Origin: a virus | Taxonomy: Duplodnaviria; Caudoviricetes | Virus record (IMG/VR): IMGVR_UViG_3300025789_000018 | DNA length: 64,000 bases | Strand: one strand, 5' to 3' | In this document: positions 2,424 through 57,963 of the stretch, one piece after another | How the letters are laid out: each line of letters starts with the position of its first letter | Position numbering within the stretch: position 1 is the stretch's first letter | The notes under the pieces: model-generated | Told to the model about the DNA's origin: nothing | Database searches by the model: none | What the model saw: the letters and a program-made list of their open reading frames with translations, nothing else | Position numbers and translations under genes: made by a program

Positions 2424-2562
2424 CTTTGTTCTCCAACCGCTGCTTGATGATAGCAATCGTTTCATCAAGAAACTCGTGAGAAGAGGTGCCATCCATCTTA
2501 ATCATAAACTTTGCAAGTTCAAGACGATCAAGTGCAAGTTTTAAAAGTTCTCTATCAGTCAT
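2416..2562 (-). CDS. hypothetical protein
   Basis: 48 aa from MTDRELL, coupled to the ligase stop. Confidence 0.5.
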   Translation of the reverse strand: MTDRELLKLALDRLELAKFMIKMDGTSSHEFLDETIAIIKQRLENKDV

Positions 2563-3124
2563 TATAAGCCAATCCCGGAAACCAAGCATCACGAATGGCT
2601 TCATACTTTGCCGTGCGACCAAGGTTATTACGGATCGTATTGCGAACAGTATCATAGACCTTAGACTTATCTTCCCAACAACTAAACACCGTAGAACGAG
2701 TGTACTGATCAAAGTTAGGAGCAATATCTAGAGCAAAAGTTTTACGATCTATACCCTCATCTTCAATCCGTTCTAGGATATGTTCAATAGAAAGACATTT
2801 AAATGCAACTTCAATGTTGTAATAATGCTCAAACTCAGACAGCCGATCACGATCTTCGGCAGGCAGATGAGCCTTGATGTCATCCAGCTTTTCATCCAGA
2901 ATGATTTCAACGATGTTGCGATCTTGTAGAATTGCTTCCTTTGCACGATGAATCTGGAGATACCACTGACACTTCAATTTCAACATATGTCCATCATCAA
3001 AGCGAACCACGAATCCTTCAAGGTCTTCCAGATCACGAACGTATTCAAGGAAAGCCTTCATATCATTCTGAGGTTCGAATGCACGAACTACAGGGATATT
3101 ATATCGAGAAATAAGATTAAACAT
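2555..3124 (-). CDS. rnlA: RNA ligase 1 (T4 gp63/RnlA-like), C-terminal fragment
   Basis: EGFVVRFDDGHMLKLKCQWY = motifs IV and V (T4 [20 protein letters not shown]); ATG at 3124 overlaps the stop of the upstream small ORF. Confidence 0.8.
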   Translation of the reverse strand: MFNLISRYNIPVVRAFEPQNDMKAFLEYVRDLEDLEGFVVRFDDGHMLKLKCQWYLQIHRAKEAILQDRNIVEIILDEKLDDIKAHLPAEDRDRLSEFEHYYNIEVAFKCLSIEHILERIEDEGIDRKTFALDIAPNFDQYTRSTVFSCWEDKSKVYDTVRNTIRNNLGRTAKYEAIRDAWFPGLAYND

Positions 3125-3332
3125 TATGAAATTCCGATTCTTCAATATGGAACTGAGGTACCCAGTCACCTACATTTTCTCCGACATCGCGCATCACGTC
3201 AATCCAATCTTGGGACTTCTCACGCTCCCAATCACCTGCAGCTTTCGCGGCATCATAGGTTTCATACACTCCAAACACATACCGATCGCCGTTATAATCA
3301 GTTTCGTCCTTGATAAGTACAAAAACTTTCAT
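3117..3332 (-). CDS. hypothetical protein inside the ligase-splitting cassette
   Basis: 71 aa MKVFVLIKDE..., GGAG SD, directly downstream of a TTGACA/TATACT promoter. Confidence 0.65.
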   Translation of the reverse strand: MKVFVLIKDETDYNGDRYVFGVYETYDAAKAAGDWEREKSQDWIDVMRDVGENVGDWVPQFHIEESEFHNV

Positions 3333-3356
3333 GTCAATCTCCATTCCTTATAGTTT

Positions 3357-3385
3357 AGTATACCACGGTTTTGGAAAAATGTCAA
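3357..3385 (-). promoter_or_regulatory. sigma70-type early promoter driving the small ORF and ligase C-fragment
   Basis: TTGACA-17-TATACT. Confidence 0.8.
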
Positions 3386-3392
3386 CTATTTT

Positions 3393-3460
3393 TATAAATA
3401 AGATGGCTGTCGCGGTATCCCCATACCCACAGCCTCTAACGCTAAACAGGAGCATCAGCT
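3393..3460 (+). promoter_or_regulatory. T4 late promoter plus conserved structured leader of the endonuclease
   Basis: TATAAATA, then stem GGCTGT/ACAGCC enclosing CGC-GGTAT-CCCC-ATACC-C, then TCTAA and AGGAG; same architecture at 11852-11914. Confidence 0.7.
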
Positions 3461-4087
3461 ATGGGTATTTATTGTACGTATCTTATCACATATAAAGGCA
3501 ACAAACTGCCGCCATTCTATATCGGATCGTCTAATATTAATAGATTAGAAGAAGGATACAGAGGAAGTGTATCTTCTGTTAGATATGGTAAGATATGGAA
3601 ACAAGAATTAAAAGAAAATCCTCATCTATTTAAATATCATATAATCACTACTCATGATACTAGAAAAGAAGCAACAGAAAAAGAACTTCAACTACAAATA
3701 ACCTTTAAGGTCATGCACAACCCAATGTATATTAATGAATCATATGCTAGAATTAATGGAGTTCATGGGTTATCTTTATCTGGTAAGAATCATTGGTCTA
3801 AACAACCAGGAAAACTTCATAATGCTAAGATAAACCATCCTAGAGGAATGCTTGGTAAGAAACATACAGATGAATTTAAGCAATTTATTTCAGAAGTTCA
3901 AATTGGTGAAAAGAATCACTTTTATGGAAAGAAACATTCACCCAAAGCTTTAGAGAAAATGAGAATAGCGGCATCAAATACCATATGGATTACCAATGGT
4001 ATAGATTCAACTCGACATCCTAAAGATGCCGCTATTCCAGAAGGTTGGTTTAGAGGTCGTCGCTTAAAGAAGCATATTGACCAGTAA
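3461..4087 (+). mobile_element. free-standing GIY-YIG homing endonuclease (Seg-like) with NUMOD3-type modules, antisense to the host gene
   Basis: IYCTYLIT...FYIGSS...YRGS N-terminus; GMLGKKHTDE and FYGKKHSPK NUMOD3 repeats. Confidence 0.85.
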
Positions 4088-4682
4088 CCATATGACGAAT
4101 AGCAGTTAATGTTAGAGTAGGTTCTTTACCATAATCAATTACAATACGCTTTTGAGGATGCATCCATTCAAAAATTGGAGTGTGTCCGTTATTAATTACA
4201 TCCCAGCAAAATGCTTCATAATCAATATCTGACAACTTTACAAATTGTTTAATCATTTCATGAAAATCTTGAGCAACCATTTTGGTGCCCCAGATAAGTT
4301 TACCTTCATGAGCAAAAACTGAGCACATTGATCCGTCTAGCTTCTCAAGGATAGCATGAGGGCGCGAAAGATCAATGACATGCTCCTGCGTCTCCTCACG
4401 CTCATTCACATTGAAGAACTTGTGGAAAGGACGACGGATGATGTCACCAGTCTTGGAGTCGAAGATGATACCACGAAGTTCGCGACGAATCTTAGCATTA
4501 AAGTTCGTAATTGGTATCCCAGAGATAGTAGTAGAGTTTACATCAGGAAACGTATCAGCCATCATCACGTTGTAGTTGATGACGGTATATGACCCTTTAT
4601 CGGCGACTACAAACTCATCGCGACCTTCAATGGCAGGCAGCACATCAGCGATGTTGGTGATGTGGGGAAATTCATAATTCAT
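4050..4682 (-). CDS. rnlA: RNA ligase 1 (T4 gp63/RnlA-like), N-terminal fragment
   Basis: RELRGIIF, RPFHKFFNVNE, motif I EKLDGS, TPIFEW, LTAIR; stops prematurely inside the antisense endonuclease gene. Confidence 0.85.
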   Translation of the reverse strand: MNYEFPHITNIADVLPAIEGRDEFVVADKGSYTVINYNVMMADTFPDVNSTTISGIPITNFNAKIRRELRGIIFDSKTGDIIRRPFHKFFNVNEREETQEHVIDLSRPHAILEKLDGSMCSVFAHEGKLIWGTKMVAQDFHEMIKQFVKLSDIDYEAFCWDVINNGHTPIFEWMHPQKRIVIDYGKEPTLTLTAIRHMVTGQYASLSDDL

Positions 4683-4705
4683 TATATATCCTTTCAATTA
4701 CGCTT

Positions 4706-10704: not shown

Positions 10705-10733
10705 ATTATACCCTGTTTGGGTCAGTAAGTCAA
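10705..10733 (-). promoter_or_regulatory. sigma70-type early promoter
   Basis: TTGACT-17-TATAAT. Confidence 0.75.
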
Positions 10734-11479
10734 TACAAACCTAGTTGATATTCAGCTTTAATAAAGTCTTTAACAAATCCTGAGCGAACGATATCTTCAA
10801 TCTCAAATTGCACAGTAGCCATACAATCCATGACATTAAAAACTTTCATCATCTCAGATAGACCACTGGATTCTTTGAATCTATCGCTAGTGAGGTCATC
10901 TTGCTTAGTGTCACCACATAAGATGATCCTGGAATTATCTCCTGTACGCGTGAGGACAGTGCGTAGCTCGACGTAACGCTGATTTTGTACCTCATCGACG
11001 AGAATAATTGCGTCGTCAATGGTCGTGCCACGTAAGAACGAGGTGCTGTGGAATTCAATAATCCCCTTTTGTTTGAGAATATCGTAAGCATCTCCTCTTC
11101 GGAATAATTCCGAGCAGATGGCTCTATAAGCAGACTCATAAACTTCCAGTTTTTGTTTCTCGGAACCAGGGAGGAATCCGATATCTTTAGACGATTGGGC
11201 GGTTCTAATAATGACCAATTTCTTTCGATCATTCTTTTCTGAAAATAGTTCTCTTAATGCTAGATAGATAGCACAAAAGGTTTTGCCTGTACCGGCGCAG
11301 CCATGCAAGAATAGATGATCACCGTCAGCATAATAATCAAATGTTTTTTGTTGGTTTTGTGTTATCGGAGTAATTGGATTTAGCACAAAACTTGGTGTTG
11401 CAGAAGATTCTCCTCTTTGGCTTCTTCTTAATTTCTTTAACTGAGTTTTAGTTAATGGTCTTTCCGTCTCGTCTATCAT
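10730..11479 (-). CDS. phoH: PhoH-like ATPase
   Basis: GCAGTGKT, IGFLPG, FLRGTT, ILVDEVQN, TRxG...ILCGDTKQDD, IVRSGFVK. Confidence 0.92.
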   Translation of the reverse strand: MIDETERPLTKTQLKKLRRSQRGESSATPSFVLNPITPITQNQQKTFDYYADGDHLFLHGCAGTGKTFCAIYLALRELFSEKNDRKKLVIIRTAQSSKDIGFLPGSEKQKLEVYESAYRAICSELFRRGDAYDILKQKGIIEFHSTSFLRGTTIDDAIILVDEVQNQRYVELRTVLTRTGDNSRIILCGDTKQDDLTSDRFKESSGLSEMMKVFNVMDCMATVQFEIEDIVRSGFVKDFIKAEYQLGLY

Positions 11480-11526: not shown

Positions 11527-11835
11527 CTAATTAAGCGGTCCTCCCACTTTGCTCTTCACCCTATTTACTGCATTACGTAACTTGGTTTCCGTTACACCCT
11601 TTGAACCTTCTTTCTGACCAAGAGGGGTATACGGATTAGCCTTAGCGATTTTCCCAATCATTTCTTTAAATCCATCGTCTGTTTTGATACCCCCGACACC
11701 GGAAACGATGGCGGGAGCACACGGGACTTTTACAATGTGGGGATTTTCGGAAAGATATACCTCTAGCGAAGAATATGACATAAACACGTCAAATTCTTCT
11801 TTAGATTCAGTGTTATAGAGTCCATACATTGGCAT
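11527..11835 (-). CDS. conserved T4-like hypothetical protein
   Basis: MPxY...YLxENPH...APAIVSGV...DGFKExxxKIxKA motif. Confidence 0.7.
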   Translation of the reverse strand: MPMYGLYNTESKEEFDVFMSYSSLEVYLSENPHIVKVPCAPAIVSGVGGIKTDDGFKEMIGKIAKANPYTPLGQKEGSKGVTETKLRNAVNRVKSKVGGPLN

Positions 11836-11851
11836 AGAATTAAAAATTCCT

Positions 11852-11914
11852 TATAAATAAAGTATCAGTCGCGGATGGCCGTCCCACTGATTCTAATCTT
11901 ACTAGGAGACCAGC
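11852..11914 (+). promoter_or_regulatory. T4 late promoter plus conserved structured leader (second copy)
   Basis: TATAAATA; stem ATCAGT/ACTGAT enclosing CGC-GGAT-GGCC-GTCC-C; TCTAA; AGGAG. Confidence 0.7.
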
Positions 11915-12469
11915 ATGACTATTTATTACGTTTACGCATACATTAATAAGAAAACAGGACTGCCATACTATATTGGCAAAGGCAAAAATAAAAGAGCTTA
12001 TTCCAAACATCATGGGATTTCAGTACCTAAAGATACTACAAAAATAGTATTTTTAGAAAGAAACTTAACAGAACTTGGAGCATTTGCTCTTGAGCGCAGA
12101 TACATTCGTTGGTATGGAAGAAAAGACATAGAAACAGGAATTCTTTTAAATAGAACAGATGGGGGTGAGGGAGCCACAAATACTGTTCGAAAAAAAGGAA
12201 TAAAAATGTCTGAATCTGCCAGAATTAACATAAGAAACGGACAATTAAATTCTCCCAACAAGAATAATAATAGAAGCAAAGCAGCAAACACAAATAAAAT
12301 AAAATATGGAGTAGTTACCCCGTTACAACAAAAATACGTAATAGAAAAAGTGGCATTAAAAAATAAACAAAGAAATTCAATTATAGATACCTGCCCTCAC
12401 TGTAATAAAGTCGGACAATTAGTAGCTATGCAAAGATGGCATTTTGATAATTGCAAACAAAACAAATAA
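11915..12469 (+). mobile_element. free-standing GIY-YIG-family homing endonuclease, antisense
   Basis: YYVYAY...[33 protein letters not shown]; C-terminal CPHC...RWHFDNCK. Confidence 0.8.
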
Positions 12470-12491: not shown

Positions 12492-12854
12492 TCAATCAGC
12501 CTGGCGGGTGATAAAATTCTTCCGAATCTTAGAAGGATTAAAATATTTCTTAACAATTGCCACGGCCAGATCGTCGTCATATTCTTTACAAGAAAAGATA
12601 TCGATGTATCCTTCTCCAGTATGATCATTGAAGTGTGCAATGATGTTACTGGTTTCAATCAGCTGAATAACAGTCCATCCTTCCAGATGGATTTCATTGT
12701 GACCGAAATGAAGAATCTGAGGTTCGCCGTAGGGAACCATTTCTATTTCTACAACCAACTCTTTTACCCAATTGCGTAGGGTATCAGGATTAGTAATCGC
12801 TTCGAGATTGCAATCGCTGCAATCTAATAGTGTGTGGTATCCCCAGTAAGACAT
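12492..12854 (-). CDS. speD: S-adenosylmethionine decarboxylase-like proenzyme
   Basis: GYHTLLDC...C, GWTVIQLIETSNIIAHF, YIDIFSCK. Confidence 0.75.
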   Translation of the reverse strand: MSYWGYHTLLDCSDCNLEAITNPDTLRNWVKELVVEIEMVPYGEPQILHFGHNEIHLEGWTVIQLIETSNIIAHFNDHTGEGYIDIFSCKEYDDDLAVAIVKKYFNPSKIRKNFITRQAD

Positions 12855-19357: not shown

Positions 19358-19432
19358 TGGTGCCGGATGCGGGATTCGAACTCGCGACCTACCGCTTACA
19401 AGGCGGTTGCTCTACCACTGAGCTAATCCGGC
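19358..19432 (-). tRNA. tRNA-Thr(UGU)
   Basis: Cloverleaf, loop CT-TGT-AA, TTCGAAT T-loop, encoded CCA. Confidence 0.95.
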
Positions 19433-19439
19433 GAAGTTA

Positions 19440-19835
19440 TTAACTTCTATTATTTAGTTCATCAATTTTAAATGTAAGTTCATCGAACTTTTCATCAAGA
19501 TCATCAAAGTGTTCATCTAAATGTTTTTCTAGCAAAAGCATCTTTTTATGCTGGCCAGTTTCTAAGTTGTAAATATCAATAGATCTTTGTCTATCTAACG
19601 TTTCGACTCTATTTTGAGCCATCATAATAACAGGGGCAGCGTATGCAGCCTGGAAACTCAAAGCTAAGTTCAGGAATATAAAGGGATATGGATCAAACGG
19701 ATGGTTAGAAACCGTGTTCCAGAGAATATAAAGCATCAAAATCAGAGTTTGGGAAATAATAAATTTCCAGGAACCCATAAGGGTTGCGCACTTATCTGCC
19801 AACCTCTCACCAAGAGAGAGTTGGGTATTTGGCAC
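19440..19835 (-). CDS. DUF1003-like membrane protein
   Basis: GERLAD...GSW.FII.Q...FDPYPFIFLNL.LS.QAAYAAPVIMMAQNR. Confidence 0.9.
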   Translation of the reverse strand: MPNTQLSLGERLADKCATLMGSWKFIISQTLILMLYILWNTVSNHPFDPYPFIFLNLALSFQAAYAAPVIMMAQNRVETLDRQRSIDIYNLETGQHKKMLLLEKHLDEHFDDLDEKFDELTFKIDELNNRS

Positions 19836-19897
19836 TTTTAGTCTCCTTTATTAGTGCTTTCTAGATTCCATAATATACATTATTTATATCATCCGTA

Positions 19898-20101
19898 TCA
19901 ACAAAAATCCTTAAACATGCCTTTTCTTCCTTCTTCACCGAGTTGTTGGTCGAAAATATCTTTACACTTAGTGAGCATCGCGCAAGCAAGCATCAAAATC
20001 TCATTAGGATCAGCAAGCATAATACTACCATCAATGAATTGCATCATTTCGTTCATACGAGTCTTAACCTCGTCAGGACTCATACGTTTTCCTTTAGCCA
20101 T
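19898..20101 (-). CDS. hypothetical protein
   Basis: 67-aa ORF. Confidence 0.6.
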   Translation of the reverse strand: MAKGKRMSPDEVKTRMNEMMQFIDGSIMLADPNEILMLACAMLTKCKDIFDQQLGEEGRKGMFKDFC

Positions 20102-20622
20102 GCCAATACATTCTGAGGAGAGCTTTCACCGTAAGGATCATCATCAGCATCCCAACGCTTACCTGGCTCAATGAACCACTTTTCGATCTTGCCATTATTG
20201 ACAACTACTGCGTAACGCCAAGAACGAATACCAAATCCAAGATTATACTTACTAACATCCATACCCATATTACGAGTAAATTCGGCATTACCATCAGGAA
20301 TAACTTTGACTTTCTTCAGCTTCTGCTGTTTTGCCCAAGCATTCATAACAAAAGCATCATTGACGCTTACGCAATAAATGTCCTTGATACCTAGCTTCTT
20401 AAAATCAGGATAGAGCTTTTCAAAATCAGGAAGCTGATATGTCGAACAGGTAGGAGTAAACGCTCCCGGAAGAGAGAAAAGAACAACTCGCTTACCTGCA
20501 AACAACTCAAACGTGGTAACATCTTGCCAGCGATACGGATTCGGTCCTTCGATAGAATCATCGCGGACACGAGTATTAAACAATACGCTAGGAACCAACG
20601 TCGGTAGAAGGTCAATATCCAT
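20080..20622 (-). CDS. peroxiredoxin (Prx5/glutaredoxin-dependent type)
   Basis: VVLFSLPGAFTPTCS, CVSVNDAFVMNAW, PDGNAEFT, GIRSWRYA. Confidence 0.93.
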   Translation of the reverse strand: MDIDLLPTLVPSVLFNTRVRDDSIEGPNPYRWQDVTTFELFAGKRVVLFSLPGAFTPTCSTYQLPDFEKLYPDFKKLGIKDIYCVSVNDAFVMNAWAKQQKLKKVKVIPDGNAEFTRNMGMDVSKYNLGFGIRSWRYAVVVNNGKIEKWFIEPGKRWDADDDPYGESSPQNVLAWLKENV

Positions 20623-20633
20623 AATAAAATTCC

Positions 20634-20810
20634 TTACGGCTCAATAACAACAAGTTCAGTAGGCAGCTGCTTACGATGTAAGACAAGAACTGAATCAAGA
20701 GGAGAGAAAAAGTCAGATTCTTCCATAATCTTAGTATAAGAAGAAACTGTCTCATCAATAGCTCCAGAAGGGATATCATCCACATTTACATATAGTACAT
20801 ACTTTGCCAT
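20634..20810 (-). CDS. hypothetical protein
   Basis: Manual translation MAKYVLYV..., 58 aa. Confidence 0.5.
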   Translation of the reverse strand: MAKYVLYVNVDDIPSGAIDETVSSYTKIMEESDFFSPLDSVLVLHRKQLPTELVVIEP

Positions 20811-20847
20811 ATTTTATGCTCCAATAATTCCGAATAACTCCAAAAAA

Positions 20848-20931
20848 TGGCTCCTGCGGTAGGACTCGAACCTACAATGCGTGAGCGGTTGATTAACAGT
20901 CAACTGGGTCTACCAATTCCCCCACACAGGA
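20848..20931 (-). tRNA. tRNA-Asn(GUU) with an atypically long variable region
   Basis: Acceptor TCCTGTG/CGCAGGA, G73, anticodon arm GTTGA-CTGTTAA-TCAAC, 12-nt variable region, CCA. Confidence 0.85.
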
Positions 20932-20936
20932 ACAAA

Positions 20937-21566
20937 CTAAATACCTCTTTTTTTACCATTCTGAGAAACAAACTCTTCAAGCAAATCAGAACATCTAGTT
21001 ACAAAGTTTGATTTTGTATACTTATAGTCAACTATTGTGACGAACTTTTCCCATCCATATTCACAATAAATCTTATAATATTCTCTATAAACTTCTATAT
21101 TTTTTAATCTGCGAAGTTCTAGTTTTGATTGAGATTTGATCTTTTGTTTCTTAACTCTACCTTTATTCCAACCAGTTGGTACCACAGAATCGATTGTTAT
21201 TTTCTTGGAAATAACACCATCATTTATCCACATGGTTCCAAACTGAGAGTTGCCCGAGCCAGATTGAGATTCTGACATTACTTTACTAAAACTTCTTCTT
21301 ATCCAACCATATAACTTATTTGAAGAACGATTGGGTATCATCATCTGAGCGGCCATAATCAACTTAAAGTTGTTAGGATATATTTTCACCAAAAGTTGAT
21401 GTGCCACATAGTGTTCTTCTGGGGTTAGATATACCAGATTTGATTTATCATCAGAACCACCCATACAACGAGGAACAATATGATGTTCTTCATAATATGT
21501 TTGGTCATCTCTGAATCTATTAAGACCCCGATCAATGAGTGATTTGTATATCTTCTGGTAATCCAT
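20937..21566 (-). mobile_element. free-standing HNH homing endonuclease (MobE-like)
   Basis: MDYQKIY...YYEEHHIVPRCMGGSDD..NLV.LTPEEHYVAH.LL.KIYP. Confidence 0.88.
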
Positions 21567-21576
21567 GAGCAATCCT

Positions 21577-21623
21577 ACTGTTAATCTATATTACTTATAT
21601 AAAAGTAGTTTTTGATTAACAGT
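21577..21623 (-). promoter_or_regulatory. RBS-occluding hairpin with an internal late-promoter variant
   Basis: 10-bp inverted repeat ACTGTTAATC/GATTAACAGT (21577-86, 21614-23) abutting the AGG SD; TATAAGTA lies between the arms. Confidence 0.7.
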
Positions 21624-21641
21624 GAGAATATAACTTATTTA

Positions 21642-21718
21642 TGGCGCGCCCGACAGGAGTCGAACCTGTGACCTCAAGATTAGAAGTCTCGCGCTCTATC
21701 CAGCTGAGCTACGGGCGC
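21642..21718 (-). tRNA. tRNA-Arg(UCU)
   Basis: Cloverleaf, CT-TCT-AA, CCA. Confidence 0.95.
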
Positions 21719-21729
21719 ATTCAATATTA

Positions 21730-21758
21730 CTTATACGCTATATCAAAAACAAAGTCAA
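21730..21758 (-). promoter_or_regulatory. sigma70-type promoter
   Basis: TTGACT-17-TATAAG. Confidence 0.6.
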
Positions 21759-21761
21759 GTT

Positions 21762-22532
21762 TTATTTTGTGACTGTCCAAAAATCGCTGGCAAGATCACG
21801 GTCAGTAATATATGCATATGGCATGTAGAAATAGCCATTATCTCCCCAAGCAGAACCCCATGAGTTACGAACGATAACACGCTGTTTTGCATCGTCATAT
21901 CCTACCATAAGGACAGCATGACCGCCAATAGGAGTAGCGTTATGAGGAGGCATGTGAAGAACACCAGTTGCAGCGACGTCTTCTGATTGAAATTCATCGA
22001 ATACACTAAAGCCAAAGACAATAGGATATCCCGATGAAAGAACTTTCTTGATATCATCCATTCCGTTATCGCGACTTACACGAGCAGAAGCAGTAATCTT
22101 TCGGGTAGCAGCATCAGCATAGGCAGCATCAGCAGGTTTGATGAAAATCTTTCCAGTGCTGTATGGCCACAAGGCTTCAGTACAAACACCAGTATTTGTG
22201 ATAGAAGCAATACCATCGCTAATTTGTGCACCAGCATCTTGGTTGACACTGTTTTCAATCGATCGTTCGTTATAGTAAACAAACAGACGACTTAGCGAAA
22301 TTAAAGTATTGTCCTTTTCAAAATCATGATCTTTATTCTCTAGGAACTCAACAGCAGCCACAATGGCATTCCCTGTACAAGAGCCAATCGTACCCTGGTC
22401 AAATACAGGCGGGCAAATCTTGCGAAGGTCAACGGTTGGATGCGAGGTCTTAACTAAAGTAAAAGCAGGATGATTCTGTACGTATACATCTCTGGCGTCG
22501 TGGTAATCTCTTTTCCAGTTATACAATCCCAT
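21762..22532 (-). CDS. papain-like cysteine protease (C1A)
   Basis: DQGTIGSCTGNA (Gln/Cys), GGHAVLMVGY (His), VRNSWGSAWGDNGYF (Asn). Confidence 0.93.
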   Translation of the reverse strand: MGLYNWKRDYHDARDVYVQNHPAFTLVKTSHPTVDLRKICPPVFDQGTIGSCTGNAIVAAVEFLENKDHDFEKDNTLISLSRLFVYYNERSIENSVNQDAGAQISDGIASITNTGVCTEALWPYSTGKIFIKPADAAYADAATRKITASARVSRDNGMDDIKKVLSSGYPIVFGFSVFDEFQSEDVAATGVLHMPPHNATPIGGHAVLMVGYDDAKQRVIVRNSWGSAWGDNGYFYMPYAYITDRDLASDFWTVTK

Positions 22533-22549
22533 TGCAGTATCCTTATATT

Positions 22550-22636
22550 TGGTGGGGAAGGATGGATTCGAACCAACTCACCGGTTAAAGATCAGATTTA
22601 CAGTCTGACGCACCTCTCCAACTGTGCCGCTTCCCC
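22550..22636 (-). tRNA. tRNA-Tyr(GUA)
   Basis: Class II cloverleaf, CT-GTA-AA, CCA. Confidence 0.93.
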
Positions 22637-22641
22637 AAATT

Positions 22642-22715
22642 TGGATGCCCTCCAAGGACTCGAACCTTGATTGACGGAGTCAGAGTCCGCTCTCTTACCA
22701 TTAGAGGAAAGGGCA
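22642..22715 (-). tRNA. tRNA-Gln(CUG)
   Basis: Cloverleaf, CT-CTG-AC, CCA. Confidence 0.93.
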
Positions 22716-22716
22716 A

Positions 22717-22905
22717 TTACATCATATTTATATCAACAATATTACGATTCAGCAAATGGCGAGCCATGCGATGTTCAAGTTTTTTATCGCGGCTACGAGC
22801 CTTTTTGCTACGCCGATTATTGTAGGTTTCAGTAGGAAAAGTATCATGACCCGGACAGCAACGCTCGATCAGGCTGGGCTTAACAAAATAAATGTCGCGC
22901 TTCAT
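22717..22905 (-). CDS. small basic hypothetical protein
   Basis: 62 aa from MKRDIY; CCPGHD...R.SKKARS. Confidence 0.6.
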   Translation of the reverse strand: MKRDIYFVKPSLIERCCPGHDTFPTETYNNRRSKKARSRDKKLEHRMARHLLNRNIVDINMM

Positions 22906-22919
22906 ACATTCTCCTATAT

Positions 22920-22997
22920 TGGAGCACCGAGCCAGATTCGAACTGGCGACTTTAGTGCTTTGCAGGCACTTGCAATGGACCACTCTGCCATCGGCGC
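22920..22997 (-). tRNA. tRNA-Cys(GCA)
   Basis: AGTGC-CTGCAAA-GCACT, U73, CCA. Confidence 0.93.
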
Positions 22998-23013
22998 ATT
23001 CATTCTATTTATA

Positions 23014-23087
23014 TGGTGCGCAAGGGAAGAATCGAACTTCCGTCGACCGATTATCAGTCGGGTGCTCTACCATTGAGCTACATGCGC
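23014..23087 (-). tRNA. tRNA-Ile(GAU)
   Basis: Cloverleaf, CT-GAT-AA, CCA. Confidence 0.92.
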
Positions 23088-23091
23088 ATTA

Positions 23092-23167
23092 TGGCGACTC
23101 GTACGGGAATTGAACCCGTGGTCTCTTGCGTGACAGGCAAGCGTCTTAACCACTCGACTAACGAGCC
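23092..23167 (-). tRNA. tRNA-Asp(GUC)
   Basis: Cloverleaf, CT-GTC-AC, G73, CCA. Confidence 0.94.
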
Positions 23168-23250
23168 AAACTGTTTAGAAGAACACACAGGAGTAAGCAT
23201 CCTGCTTTTTAAGCTACACCGTGAGAACCTGTGTATTCATCAAAATAGAT

Positions 23251-23399
23251 TGGTGGGAGCGGCGGGACTCGAACCCGCACGGTCAAAAGACCACAAGATT
23301 TTAATAGGCGAGGATTCCGGATTCGCACCGTCAGTCTTACTGATCTACGCTTTCGCGCTTTCCTCGGTCTCGGGCGTCTACCAATTCCGCCACGCTCCC
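23251..23399 (-). tRNA. tRNA-Leu(UAA) interrupted by a 62-nt structured intervening sequence (23305-23366)
   Basis: 5' half GGGAGCG-TG-GCGGAATTGGTAGACGC-C-CGAGA-C; 3' half TTAAAA-TCTTG, variable arm GGTC-TTTT-GACC, GCGGG-TTCGAGT-CCCGC, CGCTCCC-A-CCA; joining the halves restores loop CTTAAAA. Confidence 0.85.
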
Positions 23400-23407
23400 A
23401 CTATATT

Positions 23408-23483
23408 TGGTGCCTCCGGAGAGAGTCGAACTCCCGACGCCCAGATCTTCAATCTGGCGCTCTACCAACTGAGCTACAGAGGC
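23408..23483 (-). tRNA. tRNA-Phe(GAA)
   Basis: Cloverleaf, TT-GAA-GA, CCA. Confidence 0.95.
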
Positions 23484-23491
23484 ATTAAAAC

Positions 23492-23548
23492 ATTCGACGC
23501 CCGGAGTCGAACCGGCTTAGTGCACTAGCGCCCACACGCACGTCGAAT
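23492..23548 (-). ncRNA. putative tRNA-like mini-RNA (T-arm plus closing stem, no CCA)
   Basis: ATTCGACG/CGTCGAAT closing stem and CCGG-TTCGACT-CCGG T-arm. Confidence 0.4.
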
Positions 23549-23553
23549 AACAT

Positions 23554-23628
23554 TGGTGGGGGAAGGTAGATTCGAACTACCAGCCTATGGCGTATGAGAC
23601 CATCGCTCCACCGTTGAGCTATTCCCCC
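23554..23628 (-). tRNA. tRNA with CAU anticodon (Met or Ile2)
   Basis: GGGGGAA/TTCCCCC acceptor, CT-CAT-AC, CCA. Confidence 0.88.
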
Positions 23629-23629
23629 A

Positions 23630-23704
23630 TGGTACTCGGTGAGAGATTTGAACTCCCGACCCTCTCCGTGTAAAGGAGTTGCGCTACCACTGCGCCAACC
23701 GAGC
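23630..23704 (-). tRNA. tRNA-Val(UAC)
   Basis: Cloverleaf, TT-TAC-AC, CCA. Confidence 0.9.
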
Positions 23705-23713
23705 ATTATTCTT

Positions 23714-23796
23714 TGGTGCCCGTGGAGGGACTCGAACCCCCACCCTCTCGGACTGGTACCTAAAACCAGCGCGTCTACCAATTCCACCACACGGGC
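23714..23796 (-). tRNA. tRNA-Leu(UAG)
   Basis: Class II cloverleaf, TT-TAG-GT, CCA. Confidence 0.94.
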
Positions 23797-23807
23797 AAAT
23801 AAACTAT

Positions 23808-24035
23808 TTATGCAATCAACTGTTCAATCTTGGCCTTAACAGACTTAGCACGATCAATATGACCAACCTTAACAATACGCTTCTCAGCTAGTTTCGTTTC
23901 GGTTTCAACAATCTTGACGACATTGTTTTCTTCACGAGTAACAAAATCATCTAGTTCTTGTGATACACGATTAAATGTATTCAAAATAGTATGAATAGAC
24001 TTGATACCAAACAAAGCCAAAATACGCTCAACCAT
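23808..24035 (-). CDS. hypothetical helical protein
   Basis: 75-aa ORF with SD AGGA between tRNA genes. Confidence 0.55.
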   Translation of the reverse strand: MVERILALFGIKSIHTILNTFNRVSQELDDFVTREENNVVKIVETETKLAEKRIVKVGHIDRAKSVKAKIEQLIA

Positions 24036-24082
24036 AATATATGTCTTTCCTGTAAGAGCTAATTACACAATTATTTATATAG

Positions 24083-24159
24083 TGGTGGACCCTCTGGGAC
24101 TCGAACCCAGCACCTTCCGATTAAAAGTCGGACGCTCTAACCAACTGAGCTAAGGGTCC
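24083..24159 (-). tRNA. tRNA-Lys(UUU)
   Basis: Cloverleaf, CT-TTT-AA, CCA. Confidence 0.95.
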
Positions 24160-24178
24160 ATATTCACTTAACATTGAC

Positions 24179-24207
24179 AGTATACCAAAACAAAGGTGCA
24201 AAGTCAA
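24179..24207 (-). promoter_or_regulatory. sigma70-type promoter within the tRNA cluster
   Basis: TTGACT-17-TATACT. Confidence 0.75.
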
Positions 24208-24217
24208 GCTAAAAATT

Positions 24218-24294
24218 TGGCGCACCCAATAGGACTCGAACCTATAACCTTCGGCTTCGTAGGCCGACGCTCTATCCAGTTGAGCTATGAGTGC
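24218..24294 (-). tRNA. tRNA-Arg(ACG)
   Basis: Cloverleaf, CT-ACG-AA, CCA. Confidence 0.95.
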
Positions 24295-24309
24295 ATAAAA
24301 TATTATTTA

Positions 24310-24386
24310 TGGTGTGACGTGAGAGATTCGAACTCTCTATCTTCGGCTCCACAAGCCGACGCATCATCCATGTCTGCCTACGTCAC
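24310..24386 (-). tRNA. tRNA-His(GUG), A73 discriminator
   Basis: TCGGC-TTGTGGA-GCCGA; 3' end ACGTCAC-A-CCA. Confidence 0.9.
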
Positions 24387-24390
24387 CACA

Positions 24391-24482
24391 TGGCGGAAGA
24401 TCAGGGAGTCGAACCCACGGAACCTATTTCTAGGCTCAACACCTTAGCAGGGTGCCGATTTCAACCACTCATCCAACTCACC
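24391..24482 (-). tRNA. tRNA-Ser(GCU), chimeric, with mispaired acceptor and T stems
   Basis: GCACC-CTGCTAA-GGTGT anticodon arm and long variable arm; 5' GGTGAGT pairs poorly with 3' ATCTTCC; 5' part overlaps the last codons of the upstream endonuclease. Confidence 0.7.
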
Positions 24483-25064
24483 AATTTCTTTTTTTCTTAA
24501 CACCTTTAATGTTAACTCTTTAGGGAATTGATCCCATTTTGCTTTATCCATTTCCGTCTCATAACCTTTTATTTCAATATAAGAATTCCAATCTTCGACA
24601 AAAAAGTCTGGAAGATATGTAGAAGGCTTACCATCAGGTTTAATGTATGGAAATCTTTTCTTATTTCTTAACCAAGTTAATTTATTGGCATCTGCATATT
24701 TACAAAATATCAATTCCCATGAACCATCAACTTTAATTTCACCAGCAATAGGAGAAGAATATGGATATTTTTTGCATCTTCCAGCAACACATTCCCAACC
24801 ATTTGCATATCGTTCATTAATTTTATCAGACAATTTTTTCTTAGATTTATCAGAATGTTTTCTGCCTAAGAAGGTGCCTGGTTTGTTTTTTGTTCCTACG
24901 TCATAATGTAGAGTTTTGCCTTTATTCCATGGGGTAGGATTTTCAGCTTTATATCGTTTGAATGGAGATTCTTGTTTTTGAGGATTTTCTTTGCACATTC
25001 GTTCATGATTGCACAAAGAATTTTTATTTTTACATTCTTTTTGACAGTAACAGCACAATAACAT
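24444..25064 (-). mobile_element. free-standing PD-(D/E)XK endonuclease with zinc finger and NUMOD3-type motif, inserted in the tRNA-Ser locus
   Basis: CCYC...LCNHERMC zinc finger; FLGRKHS..SKKKLS; GSWE..F; YLPDFF...YIEIKGY; TATAAATA late promoter at 25084-25091. Confidence 0.8.
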
Positions 25065-25097
25065 AAGGGCACCTCCTTGTTATTATTTATAATAAAT

Positions 25098-25130
25098 CAG
25101 TGCGCTGCATTACCGTCCTGCCCATCTTCC
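25098..25130 (-). pseudogene. orphan 5' half of a tRNA-Ser
   Basis: GGAAGAT-GG-GCA-GGACGGTAA-TGC-A-GCGCA-CTG; GGAAGAT is the perfect partner of ATCTTCC at the 3' end of 24391-24482. Confidence 0.75.
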
Positions 25131-25140
25131 AACAGTTTAT

Positions 25141-25314
25141 TTAGTATGGAATAAACTCATCAGTAGGTAAACCAACGGGCGAATCAACAGAATAGATACC
25201 ACCGAATGACATGTTACCAACAGCATCCCATGCCTCTTCAACAGTGTTACACTCTGTTCTTTCAGTACCCTTGAAGGAATGTGTCACCACAACGTAGTTT
25301 GGCTTCTTATCCAT
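25141..25314 (-). CDS. hypothetical protein
   Basis: 57 aa from MDKKP. Confidence 0.5.
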   Translation of the reverse strand: MDKKPNYVVVTHSFKGTERTECNTVEEAWDAVGNMSFGGIYSVDSPVGLPTDEFIPY

Positions 25315-25931
25315 TAGTTGGGTCCACTTCCATTGCCCCAAGCCTTACCAACAGGTGCATAACCAGTATCAGCCCAACGCTTCTGAATACGTGCTTCCAC
25401 TTCTTCAAAAGACAGAGGCTCATAGTTGGTGTGTTCAACCGAGACGCACAGATACCTCGGATCAGGTTCTTGCATATGTCGAAGTTCTGGAACTTGCATC
25501 CGTCGCATAACTTCATTTGCATGAAGATGTCCATGAACGTTGACGCGGAAACGTTCTGACACACAATCGGGGTGAAGTGGAATATGGCTCAAAATGAACT
25601 GGTCCACAAACACCCGAACACCATACAGGCTATCAAACCCAGCATCACGATAATCTTGATCCTTGAAGATATCATGGTTGCCGCGAACCAGACGCTTCTT
25701 GCCGTTCAGGCGCTTGACATGATGCAGAGACTTGCGATTGATAACAACATCGCCCAGATGATACACCGTGTCATTAGGACCGACCTTAGCGTTCCAACGC
25801 TCTACCATCGTTTCGTCCATTTCCTCAGTGGAAGTGAACGGGCGAAGAGGCTCGCCGTTGGGCAGCTTGAACTTTTCCCAAGAGTTGGTGTGACCAAAGT
25901 GAGTGTCAGAGATTACAAAACGATTAGACAT
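25314..25931 (-). CDS. calcineurin-like metallophosphoesterase
   Basis: ISDTHFGH, YHLGDV, RGNHD, LSHIP, NVHGHLH; real start MSNRF. Confidence 0.92.
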   Translation of the reverse strand: MSNRFVISDTHFGHTNSWEKFKLPNGEPLRPFTSTEEMDETMVERWNAKVGPNDTVYHLGDVVINRKSLHHVKRLNGKKRLVRGNHDIFKDQDYRDAGFDSLYGVRVFVDQFILSHIPLHPDCVSERFRVNVHGHLHANEVMRRMQVPELRHMQEPDPRYLCVSVEHTNYEPLSFEEVEARIQKRWADTGYAPVGKAWGNGSGPN

Positions 25932-25945
25932 TATAAATTCCTTCT

Positions 25946-26019
25946 TGGCACAGGAGGTAGGAGTCGAACCCACGCTTGCTGGGTTGGAGCCAGCCGTGCT
26001 ACCATAACACTTCCCCTGC
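25946..26019 (-). tRNA. tRNA-Gly(UCC)
   Basis: Cloverleaf, CT-TCC-type loop CTCCAAC region, CCA. Confidence 0.88.
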
Positions 26020-26048
26020 ATTATGCATATTTTATTTAATAAAGTCAA
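26020..26048 (-). promoter_or_regulatory. sigma70-type promoter
   Basis: TTGACT-17-CATAAT. Confidence 0.6.
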
Positions 26049-26057
26049 GCTAAAATT

Positions 26058-26148
26058 TGGTGCGCCCGTCGAGACTTGAACTCGAACCAACCCCTAATCT
26101 GGGCATCCGGGATATAAATCCGGTCGTGCTACCTTACACTACAAGCGC
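26058..26148 (-). tRNA. atypical tRNA, best read as Ile(UAU), long variable arm
   Basis: Acceptor GCGCTTG/CGGGCGC, CCGG-A-TTTATAT-C-CCGG anticodon arm, about 21-nt variable arm, TCGAG-TTCAAGT-CTCGA, CCA. Confidence 0.65.
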
Positions 26149-26155
26149 ATTTATA

Positions 26156-26231
26156 TGGTGGAACCAGTCGGACTCGAACCGACCACCTTCTGCGTGCAAG
26201 GCAGACGCTCTCCCAGATGAGCTATGGCCCC
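26156..26231 (-). tRNA. tRNA-Ala(UGC)
   Basis: G3-U70 acceptor GGGGCCA/TGGTTCC, CT-TGC-AC, CCA. Confidence 0.95.
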
Positions 26232-26295
26232 ATAAACTTATTTATCAATTTCAGTAACTAGTATGATACCGTTTCAAACACCGCGCGACAGAATA

Positions 26296-26372
26296 TGGTA
26301 CACCGAGAGGGACTTGAACCCCCAACCTATCCGTTATGAGCGGACAGCTCTAACCAATTGAGCTATCGGTGC
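26296..26372 (-). tRNA. tRNA with CAU anticodon (Ile2 or Met)
   Basis: Cloverleaf, CT-CAT-AA, CCA. Confidence 0.9.
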
Positions 26373-33842: not shown

Positions 33843-34853
33843 TTACAACTTACAAGAATCGCAATCAACCTCAGCTTCGTCAACCATACTTATGGGTAAT
33901 GGCTTATCTTCCATTTCTCCAGCACCATCATTAGTGTTGAAGTAGTATAAAGTCTTACCACCATATTTATAGTGCATAAGGATATGCCCAAGGATTTCAG
34001 ACATGGGAATTTTATTATCAGGATAATGTGTTGGATTATATGATGTGTTGACCGATATGGCCTGATCAATAAACTTCTGCAACACAGCCATGATCTTCAG
34101 ATAGCCTTCGGGTGATTTCTGGTCCCATAGCAATTCGTATTTATTCTTTAGTGTACGGATACCAGGTACGACCTGCTTTAGTACACCATCCTTAGACTGC
34201 TTAATTGATACAAGCGCGCGAGGTGGTTCAATACCATTTGTTGAATTACTTATCTGAGCTGATGTCTCTGCTGGCATGAGTGCCATTAGAGTAGAGTTAC
34301 GAATACCAACCGTAGCTGCACGAAGAGCAAGACTGTCCCAATCCATCTTATAGTTTGGTTGAACTAGTTCATCGACTTCCTTCTTGTATGTATCAATAGG
34401 CATGATTCCACCTGAGTAAAGCGTATCAGTATGCTTAGGACATGGATCTACTTCTTCTGCCAAGTCGACCGAGGCTTTGATAAGATAATAACTCCATGCT
34501 TCAGCATACTCATGCACAAGATCGAGATCTGGATCAGAGTAACTGCTATCATTACGAGCCAGCCAATAAGCAAAATTAATGATGCCGATGCCAAGAGGAC
34601 GACGGTTGCGAGTACCAATAGCAGCGGCTCTAACAGGATAGTCTTGATAATCCAGTAGGGCATCCAGAGCGCGTACAGCAATGGTGCATGGCTTTTCGAA
34701 GTCAGCTGGCTTTCTAATCTTTCCCCAATTGATCGCACTTAACGTACACAACGATATTTCTGATTTACAATCAGATTCGAAAACTTCTGTAACATAAACA
34801 TGTTCCTTATCTTTAGTGTCGATACTGTCGACAATTTCATATTTAAAATCCAT
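33843..34853 (-). CDS. nrdA: ribonucleotide reductase alpha subunit, C-terminal fragment (NrdA-b) with novel N-terminal tail
   Basis: About 31-aa non-RNR tail then EISLCTLSAINWG, RRPLGIG, RNSTLMALMPAETS, KTLYY, C-terminal CDSCKL. Confidence 0.93.
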   Translation of the reverse strand: MDFKYEIVDSIDTKDKEHVYVTEVFESDCKSEISLCTLSAINWGKIRKPADFEKPCTIAVRALDALLDYQDYPVRAAAIGTRNRRPLGIGIINFAYWLARNDSSYSDPDLDLVHEYAEAWSYYLIKASVDLAEEVDPCPKHTDTLYSGGIMPIDTYKKEVDELVQPNYKMDWDSLALRAATVGIRNSTLMALMPAETSAQISNSTNGIEPPRALVSIKQSKDGVLKQVVPGIRTLKNKYELLWDQKSPEGYLKIMAVLQKFIDQAISVNTSYNPTHYPDNKIPMSEILGHILMHYKYGGKTLYYFNTNDGAGEMEDKPLPISMVDEAEVDCDSCKL

Positions 34854-35448
34854 TTTGTTTCCTTAAATGCTTTGCTAGATTCCCCAGATCCCATTCACGG
34901 CGGCAGCACACACAACAGGCTTTCTTTCCTTGTAAGTGTTTCGTGCCATTGGGCTGTTTTTTAAGATTATACTTACCGCGTTTCTTTCCTAATTTTGCTA
35001 ACCGCATCTTTTCTTTAGTTTCATCTGACGCCTTGACAACACCGACTAAACCTTTATTCCAGGCTTTTTGACCCATATGACCTAAAGAATTGTTGATTCT
35101 ATGTTCCGTCGATTGCGGACCTATCTTTCTACCTTTAGTTTTTATACTCATGGCGGCATAATCTCTAAAAGCAGACGTATCTCCACCACTTCCATTTTCT
35201 TCAATAAAATTAGCCCAGTTAGGAGAATTAACCACATCCCATAATTTGGAATAGTATAACCCTTGTTCTTTTATTTCTAATATATCATCAGATTGAAATA
35301 GAATCTCTGTCTCAATATCTTTACCATATTTGTTCAGTTCTCTTTTCCATCTCTTCCCTGAACCCAGGTATTCGAACGGATTTTGTTCTGTCTTACCAAG
35401 ATATTTAAGTCCAGTAACTTTATGCGTTTTAACATATAGTGTAATCAT
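34843..35448 (-). mobile_element. GIY-YIG homing endonuclease splitting nrdA
   Basis: LYVKTH..TGLKYLGKT...Y.GSG..W; NUMOD-like GQKAWNKGL and ETKEKMR.AKLGK. Confidence 0.88.
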
Positions 35449-35476
35449 AGTAGTGTTCTCCTCACTACTATTTATA
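35448..35476 (-). promoter_or_regulatory. late promoter overlapping an RBS/start-sequestering hairpin
   Basis: TATAAA-TAGTAGTG-AGGAGAA-CACTACTA-TG: 8-bp stem, SD in the loop, A of ATG in the stem. Confidence 0.8.
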
Positions 35477-57787: not shown

Positions 57788-57963
57788 CTCAATTTAGTCC
57801 ATTTGCTTTTAAGAGTTAGTTTTGTTATTAGCCTTTTGTAGAGACTAACATTATTCATAAATTCAATCTTAAGATCACCATCCCCAAAAACCTCCCAAAC
57901 CCATTTGGGTTCACGAGGAACTGGGACGTAGCCTAAGCGTTCATCCCATTTTAATTGTTCCAT
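57784..57963 (-). CDS. hypothetical protein
   Basis: Manual translation MEQLKW..., 59 aa, coupled to regA and the endolysin. Confidence 0.5.
   Translation of the reverse strand: MEQLKWDERLGYVPVPREPKWVWEVFGDGDLKIEFMNNVSLYKRLITKLTLKSKWTKLR

Follow-up and report, generated by a model that had tools for sequence, protein, structure and literature searches.

Two endonuclease genes on a 64,000-nt stretch of viral DNA (IMG/VR record IMGVR_UViG_3300025789_000018; the whole stretch is called the window here) are each preceded by a short hairpin-forming sequence, raising the question of what this shared element is, in which strand it folds, and what it does for the genes behind it. T4-like phages have homing nucleases as their main mobile elements, and accounts of how these are controlled have so far invoked sense-strand hairpins, late promoters, and autorepression. 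A sequence-only reading had described the element as a covarying structured leader common to two otherwise unrelated GIY-YIG genes; in the sequence of the 3393 and 11852 regions, both sites read exactly as first described, and the two nuclease proteins, beyond their shared domain family, show no BLASTP similarity (E 2.7).

Two Copies of One Module in a T4-Like Phage

The window comes from a T4-like phage, with a gp43-type DNA polymerase approximately 50% identical to cyanomyovirus homologues and genes lying mostly on the minus strand. A near-identity search with both loci found no match and no close DNA relative among cultured phage records, and short blastn searches with a window copy and with a consensus-like copy returned nothing meaningful. 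The T4-type late-promoter consensus TATAAATA occurs 14 times in the window (5 expected); the late promoter of this phage clade is deduced here from the T4 and cyanophage consensus. Rfam covariance models, run over the whole 64-kb window, identified 20 tRNA genes; these form a minus-strand cluster (19361-26372) within which TATAAATA motifs and nuclease-like ORFs are scattered.

The module at site 1 spans 3393-3473. It opens on the plus strand with the sense late-promoter motif TATAAATA (3393..3400; assigned by sequence, T4-type late consensus), followed in order by AGAT, the stem GGCTGT/ACAGCC around CGCGGTATCCCCATACCC, TCTAA (3435-3439), the Shine-Dalgarno (SD) sequence AGGAG (3448-3452), CAGCT, and the ATG of a 208-aa GIY-YIG/NUMOD3 homing endonuclease gene (3461..4087, plus strand; phrog_10820 and phrog_314). 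On the minus strand, fold and covariation define two hairpins. Hairpin B (3405..3434), which is the stem noticed in the sequence-only reading, has 10-11 bp and two single-G bulges, and is followed by AUCUUAUUUAUA; hairpin A (3436..3458), formed by CUGAUGCU and AGCGUUAG, has 8 bp including two G·U pairs and a loop, CCUGUUU, complementary to the 5′ part of the SD region. The module extends beyond its first description, to a TATTTAT(N) sequence after the ATG (3466-3473 at site 1 and 11920-11927 at site 2). At site 1 this sequence, TATTTATT on the plus strand, lies in nuclease codons 2-4 and reads on the minus strand as AATAAATA, a late-promoter-like motif (3466..3473) that faces the sense promoter. 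Sequence, fold, and model together predict an antisense RNA of ~68 nt (3393..3460, minus strand), which we infer to start 6 nt after AATAAATA and to end in the U-tract; the complement of TATAAATA is part of its predicted U-rich tail.

The module at site 2 (11852-11927, again from promoter to TATTTAT(N)) has the order TATAAATA (11852..11859, plus strand, assigned by sequence), AAGT, ATCAGT/ACTGAT, TCTAA (11892-11896, plus strand), AGGAG (11904-11908), CCAGC, and ATG. Fold and covariance models place hairpin B at 11864..11891 on the minus strand; hairpin A (11893..11913, minus strand) pairs CUGGUCU with AGAUUAG in 7 bp, including two G·U pairs, around the loop CCUAGUA. The facing late-promoter-like motif, AATAAATA, is found by sequence at 11920..11927 on the minus strand, and the antisense RNA predicted from sequence, fold, and model would be ~63 nt long (11852..11914). 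The gene behind this copy (11915..12469, plus strand; phrog_15526 and phrog_655) encodes a second GIY-YIG-type homing endonuclease of 184 aa.

Covariance model R1 found exactly these two copies in the window, at 51 and 44 bits, with the next best match at 12.9 bits; that match (57810-57853, minus strand; E 0.5) lacks the core and was rejected as a copy. Model R2 gave the same two copies at 79.7 and 68.1 bits. Absence from Rfam had been named in advance as a point to check, and no Rfam 15 family matches the module: across the whole window only tRNAs pass the Rfam gathering cut-offs, and in E-value mode the best hits over the two sites reached 18.8 and 20.2 bits, where the cut-offs are 60 and 100. 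The literature that could be searched contained no description of the module. The two sites are copies of one real module and do not reflect chance.

The surroundings of the two copies differ. At site 1, an Rnl1-type RNA ligase gene is split across 2555-4697 around the cassette, with its N half at 4050-4697 (minus strand; phrog_562 positions 28-194) and its C half at 2555-3169 (minus strand; phrog_562 positions 210-366). Between the halves lies a small DUF7336-like ORF (3117-3344, minus strand) with a sigma-70-like promoter of its own (3385-3357, minus strand); a group I intron was rejected as the cause of the split, given that no intron model matched 2900-4300, either at gathering cut-offs or at E up to 10. 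This sigma-70-like promoter, TTGACA-17-TATACT (3357..3385 in ascending coordinates), directly follows the site 1 hairpin and U-tract on the minus strand; judging by its sequence and position, it would set transcription going again in the direction of the small ORF and the distal half of the RNA ligase gene, much as in a PeSL (promoter-early stem-loop). Site 2 is flanked on one side by a small transcription-regulator-like gene (11527-11835, minus strand; phrog_385), the start codon of which lies 17 nt from the sense TATAAATA, and on the other by an S-adenosylmethionine decarboxylase-like gene (12492-12854, minus strand); a PhoH-like gene (10730-11479, minus strand) is nearby. At site 2, as at a few other loci, an anti-SD-like TCCT lies just before TATAAATA; it was rejected as a module part, being the SD of the divergent neighbouring gene. 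Two further nuclease-like genes on the minus strand of the window are placed directly behind TATAAATA: one at 34843-35448 (region 34843-35476), with a phrog_314 match and a GIY-YIG-like N-terminus, and one at 24444-25064 (region 24444-25091), of endonuclease family phrog_15137 with a Cys-rich N-terminus. Neither has the hairpin module, indicating that the module is not used by every nuclease gene of this phage.

A Widespread Family Linked to Nuclease Genes

The ~80-base module is widespread in uncultured T4-like phages. The sequence-only reading had proposed a covariance-model and IMG/VR search for homologs, and three pattern scans of IMG/VR together found at least 200 distinct copies. The first scan, with the pattern TATAAATA-N10-CGCGG-N12-24-TCTAA, found at least 51 loci; 47 of the 51 listed share one architecture, with a common layout of promoter, N4, variable 6-bp stem, CGCGG...CCCA core, TCTAA, SD, CAGC, and ATG. 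Nothing is conserved upstream of the promoter in these loci, and the promoter is the left edge of conservation. Of the second and third scans, one was anchored on the core alone and the other on nothing but the two flanking 7-mers and CAGCATG. CGCGG and TCTAA were fixed in two scans and the promoters in the third; because of these fixed motifs, the conservation of each motif is judged only from the scan that left it free. Hairpin B architecture was present in 80 of the 81 viral copies inspected by eye, without the exact core or TCTAA, among the 125 listed. Model R2 matched 89 places in newly fetched viral loci; one complete 361-kb phage genome holds 13 copies by this model, and others hold 1-4.

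Among the matches listed, the module almost always precedes homing-nuclease genes that are unrelated to each other. The ORFs behind it are GIY-YIG, several HNH types (MxIYHKHHIIPKH... and ...HHIDGxxxNN...), Mob-like (MYLxNKYT...), or EndoVII-like, and nine of the ten unclear ORFs match nuclease PHROGs; the idea of a conserved, covarying nucleic-acid element accompanying otherwise unrelated endonuclease genes thus stands. The sequence-only reading had also stressed that both genes lie antisense to their neighbours, which proved incidental: while ~60% of copies are antisense, approximately one-third are co-directional with both neighbours. Behind some copies the nuclease ORF is decayed or truncated (L007:3445-3483, minus strand; L022:5140-5230, plus strand; and L119), e.g., ATG TCT ACG ATT TAA, suggesting that the module can outlast its gene.

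As a specificity control, bacterial and archaeal genomes totalling 596 Gb were scanned with the flanking-motif pattern, which occurred at 59 loci, only 14 of which have the fold (16 model matches); in viral contigs the same pattern gave at least 125 distinct matches. The fold-bearing control loci are mostly on MAG contigs, several of them just 2-7 kb long, and these contigs are probably mis-binned phage contigs. One of them, a 104-kb Nitrosarchaeum MAG contig (JAHFUM010000005.1; L266/L288), contains three module copies, and 12 further bacterial or archaeal contig loci with the module were assigned to Luteolibacter, Polynucleobacter, Terrimicrobiaceae, Actinomycetota, and others.

The Covarying Fold Lies Opposite the Nuclease Gene

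RNAalifold predicted two hairpins on a MAFFT alignment of 54 diverse minus-strand copies (A3), an alignment that was not fitted to any structure. In hairpin A, GCUGA..., the complement of (T)CAGC, pairs with ...UUAGA, the complement of TCTAA, and the helix continues into a short SD-adjacent helix. Pairing holds in 96.7% of the cells of this alignment, 157 cells are changed on both sides, and none of 500 shuffles reaches this value. For the outer stem, a MAFFT alignment of first-scan copies shows 60 double-change cells, and its covariation is again reached by none of 500 shuffles, in agreement with the original remark that the stems vary and keep pairing. A second sample of 87 distinct listed copies was anchored on the two promoter motifs and CAGCATG, with the hairpins left free; here pairing is kept in 99.4% of cells, and compensatory changes occur in 16 of the 18 pairs. 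The alignment of this sample (A4) was fitted to the model, which inflates its paired percentages; the same picture emerges from the MAFFT-based A3.

CGC, the C bulge, TCTAA, and CAGC had been taken as invariant from the two window copies; across the family they are conserved but covary. The core occurs as CGCGG/CCC, CGCCG/CGC, CGCAG/CTC, and CGCGA/TCC, and the contact between TCTAA and CAGC as TCTAA/TCAGC, TCTAT/ACAGC, and TCTAG/CCAGC. One G·U pair of hairpin A is invariant in both samples, while the neighbouring pair may be A-U, G·U, U-A, or G-C.

The wobble pairs identify the strand. A3 contains 97 G·U pairs on the minus strand versus 7 on the plus strand, and the promoter-anchored sample contains 189 versus 1. 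Only the minus strand lets TCTAA pair with (T)CAGC through G·U, the plus strand having A·C mismatches there, and the share of hairpin A cells that pair is 93% for the minus strand versus 73% for the plus strand. Predicted stability has the same direction, with a mean minimum free energy (MFE) of -17.1 kcal/mol for the minus strand versus -12.9 for the plus strand, the minus strand being more stable in 110 of 119 copies; composition-controlled z scores are -1.71 and -0.84, respectively (p ~1e-12). In the window, the minus strand folds into two hairpins and a U-rich tail at both site 1 (MFE -24.2 kcal/mol, z -2.28) and site 2 (-14.6 kcal/mol), while plus-strand folds of the two copies are no better than shuffles (z -0.68 and +0.24). 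A first small sample of 33 copies gave no clear strand signal: its outer stem has six A·C versus two G·U (five versus one without the misaligned L024), and the fourth inner pair, scored by eye, is split ~8 versus 5. The signal became clear only with hairpin A and the larger samples. The covarying fold belongs to the strand opposite the nuclease gene. The claim of a structured mRNA leader is therefore only partly supported: the structure is conserved, but it is not primarily a fold of the leader, since the second helix (TCTAA...CAGC) and nearly all wobbles fit the antisense strand only; a guide or scaffold RNA, also suggested originally, found no support.

Late-Promoter Motifs on Both Strands

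Conservation of the flanking motifs was read from the core-anchored sample, which placed no constraint on the TATTTAT region. Among the matches listed, 102 of 128 core-anchored copies have a perfect sense ATAAATA, which lies 3-5 nt from the stem; TATTTAT matches at 7/7 positions in 92 of these 128 and at 6/7 in 32 more, and its spacing from CAGC is 5 nt in 86 of 124 copies, again among the matches listed. TATTTAT begins 0, 1, or 2 nt past the ATG, i.e., in three reading frames; at a distance of 2, 0, or 1 nt it is read as M-x-I-Y, M-Y-L, or M-I-F-I, respectively. Within the M-x-I-Y ORFs, 84% use xxT-ATT-TAT, as compared to 9.6% expected from their own codon usage (p ~5e-55). It is the nucleotide sequence of TATTTAT that is conserved, with its spacing to hairpin A fixed. 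Its eighth base is A, T, or G, which fits NATAAATA, the late-promoter form reported for cyanomyoviruses (PMC2984593). Since TATTTATN is the reverse complement of NATAAATA, late-promoter motifs stand on either side of the module, pointing at each other; the minus-strand motif, conserved in its nucleotides and its spacing, is treated here as a putative promoter.

A Proposed Antisense Control of Nuclease Synthesis

We consider it probable (roughly 0.6) that two late promoters face each other across the module, one of which would drive the nuclease mRNA and the other a 63-68 nt antisense RNA that covers the SD and ends at hairpin B and its U-tract. Repression of nuclease translation would be the most likely function, with about the same probability. 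The module may thus be a portable cassette of ~80 bp that both expresses and restrains a homing-nuclease gene. T4-type late transcription starts ~6 bases after the promoter motif; this distance would have the minus-strand RNA begin at the foot of hairpin A, with the G of GCUG, and the sense mRNA at the foot of hairpin B. In this model, the sense T4-type late promoter (NATAAATA) would start the nuclease mRNA at the hairpin B foot, and codons 2-4 would carry the inverted promoter motif, pointing back at the sense promoter; minus-strand transcription would begin at the conserved GCUG and yield an RNA consisting of hairpin A, a one-base joint, hairpin B with its two bulged G's, and a U-rich tail. 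The loop and 3′ stem edge of hairpin A would present the anti-SD sequence CUCC(U), and the complementarity of the RNA to the mRNA would span the whole 5′ UTR and stop at position -1 relative to the AUG. Pairing of the two RNAs may block ribosome binding and/or trigger duplex cleavage, so that nuclease synthesis would be held down.

On the minus strand, hairpin B gives way to A(C/U)UUUUAUUUAU, complementary to the sense promoter together with its A-rich spacer; of the first 10 nt past hairpin B, an average of 6.1 are U. With this U-rich tail, hairpin B would act as an intrinsic terminator. Its stem measures 10-11 bp, its U-tract is interrupted (AUCUUAUUUAUA), and a simple terminator scan did not list the hairpin; the start of the minus-strand gene 17 nt beyond the tract at site 2 argues against a tight terminator there. 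We infer that the minus-strand motif fires, that transcription terminates at hairpin B, and that the RNA represses nuclease synthesis.

If this reading is true, the module would represent a new solution to nuclease control, in which the complement of one promoter serves as the terminator tail of the other transcript, and Rfam would be lacking an abundant, new family of phage RNAs. Such control may also be the reason why large uncultured phages can live with many nuclease genes. The covariance model aids annotation, in that it marks nuclease cassettes and exposes phage contigs binned into bacterial or archaeal MAGs.

An unlikely extension of the antisense reading is that each antisense RNA acts in trans on all nuclease-cassette mRNAs, and in mixed infections on incoming ones, as a governor of the whole family. 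Genomes with up to 13 copies that have nearly identical 5′ parts (GCUGAUGCUCCUU) would make such action possible, and a phage or host protein, e.g., a chaperone or RNase, would in that case dock at the invariant G·U and the two bulged G's. A governor RNA, if true, would represent a dedicated small-RNA system that tames selfish nucleases, or one used in nuclease-nuclease competition.

Alternative Explanations

An alternative that we regard as improbable holds that the module is a PeSL-like terminator or insulator for the minus strand, whose hairpins stop phage minus-strand transcription from running antisense through the inserted nuclease gene and may double as short homologies for cassette shuffling; the facing late motif would do no more than let the next gene be expressed late, past a leaky terminator, and nuclease repression would not be under selection. 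In T4-like phages, PeSLs are terminator-promoter cassettes described as mediators of shuffling (PMC2839356, PMC4122927). The TTGACA-17-TATACT promoter directly after the site 1 hairpin and U-tract on the minus strand has this arrangement, as does a subfamily (L160, L086, L124, L072, L155, and L069) with the stem GTCC(T/C)T and no sense late promoter; its minus strand has hairpin B, AUUUUU, and a TTGAC(A) -35-like box. In these copies, AAAAAT and the minus-strand TTGAC box replace the sense late promoter, and AAAAAT (AUUUUU on the minus strand) is kept together with TATTTAT. The antisense placement of ~60% of copies also favours an insulator, but the approximately one-third that are co-directional, which have no minus-strand host-gene transcript to stop, keep both hairpins and TATTTAT. 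A terminator function leaves hairpin A, the anti-SD loop, the invariant G·U, and the fixed spacing of the promoter motif unexplained, and the promoters of described PeSLs are early sigma-70 rather than late (PMC2839356). The PeSL combination of a sigma-70 early promoter and a terminator stem-loop was found at site 1 and in the one subfamily and is absent at site 2; most copies carry late motifs instead.

A role in the sense mRNA leader appears rather doubtful. Hairpin B would in that case be a 5′ stabiliser of the late mRNA and the SD-adjacent helix would tune translation, the fit to the minus strand being a by-product. The sense promoter lies 3-5 nt from hairpin B, so that late mRNA would begin at the stem foot; a covarying 3-5 bp helix half-occludes the SD (mean best 3.70 bp, as compared to 2.84 +/- 0.06 with permuted partners); and leader hairpins are known for T-even nuclease genes (PMC2988022, PMC3014915). 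Against this, the wobble asymmetry is 189 to 1 and 97 to 7 toward the minus strand, TCTAA and CAGC form A·C mismatches on the plus strand, and plus-strand folds barely beat shuffles across copies (z -0.84), the window copies giving -0.68 and +0.24; the conservation of TATTTAT across three reading frames would also have no explanation.

A timing switch of the T4 type, in which read-through early or middle RNA would pair UAUAAAUA with UAUUUAUA after the AUG and close the start site, while late RNA without the 5′ arm would be translated, is very unlikely. The two 8-mers are perfect complements on either side of the translation start region, and the same logic has been shown for T4 gene e and I-TevI (PMC3014915), but the two are predicted to pair with a low mean probability of 0.14, and the SD-AUG region is nearly as accessible in read-through (0.44) as in late (0.51) RNA; on these two measures, pairing of promoter RNA with TATTTAT as a gate on translation was rejected. 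An 8-bp A-U helix closing a loop of ~70 nt would be weak, and most copies lie antisense to their neighbours, where a read-through sense transcript is not expected.

Least probable is a DNA-level element, i.e., a cruciform or single-stranded DNA hairpin recognised in homing, recombination, or replication, which would suit the position at the conserved left edge of the cassettes and the flanking short inverted 8-mers, but a duplex or cruciform predicts no strand bias of G·T versus A·C, whereas the observed bias is extreme, and the same module occurs on nucleases with unrelated DNA-binding domains.

Comparison with Known Systems

Antisense control by a facing promoter has a counterpart in IS10/Tn10, for which Simons and Kleckner are said to have described the RNA-OUT/RNA-IN antisense pair in 1983. 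In IS10, a second promoter faces the gene for the DNA-cutting enzyme and produces a ~70 nt bulged stem-loop antisense RNA over the mRNA 5′ end and ribosome binding site (RBS). The module resembles RNA-OUT in that a selfish DNA-cutting gene is faced by a second, here putative, promoter and in that a bulged stem-loop on the antisense strand overlaps the RBS of its target, with the anti-SD in hairpin A. In contrast to IS10, the module promoters would be phage late promoters ~65-70 bp apart, the predicted RNA has two hairpins and a terminator tail complementary to the sense promoter, and the cassette is common to many unrelated nuclease genes; the two systems have no sequence relationship, and in the module both the antisense transcript and its repressive action are predictions.

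Late promoters and RBS-sequestering hairpins have been described for the T-even homing endonuclease genes I-TevI, I-TevII, I-TevIII, segB, and Aeh1 mobE (PMC2988022, PMC3014915). The module shares with these genes a late promoter directly upstream of the nuclease gene, which is of the I-TevI type at both 3393 and 11852, an RNA structure at the translation start, and, in the antisense reading, limited nuclease expression. In the T-even systems, however, the inhibitory hairpin forms in read-through RNA of the sense strand and contains the late start, whereas the fold of the module is downstream of the predicted sense start, is independent of read-through, and fits the antisense strand; the I-TevI arrangement, with SD and AUG sequestered only in read-through RNA and the late start inside the 5′ arm, was not found at the two sites. 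The hairpin of seg43(25) in Aeromonas phage 25, which is unexplained and lies upstream of the RBS without covering it (PMC2988022), may be comparable with the module.

CfrI of cyanophage S-PM2, an experimentally detected antisense RNA of ~225 nt (Millard et al. 2010, as summarised in PMC2984593), is similar in that it lies opposite a homing endonuclease gene in a T4-like phage. CfrI links the nuclease gene to psbA at a single locus, whereas the module is multi-copy and portable, with a predicted RNA of ~65 nt.

PeSLs resemble the module as short, repeated cassettes of a promoter and a terminator hairpin between genes of T4-like phages (PMC2839356, PMC4122927), and site 1 and one subfamily have the minus-strand hairpin, U-tract, and TTGACA. 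PeSLs have sigma-70 early promoters, one stem-loop, and no tie to nucleases (PMC2839356, PMC4122927); the module, in contrast, has a late motif on each strand and two hairpins, and is linked almost exclusively to nucleases. The element is most likely a cis-antisense control of a selfish nuclease gene, representing a known kind of regulation in a new form.
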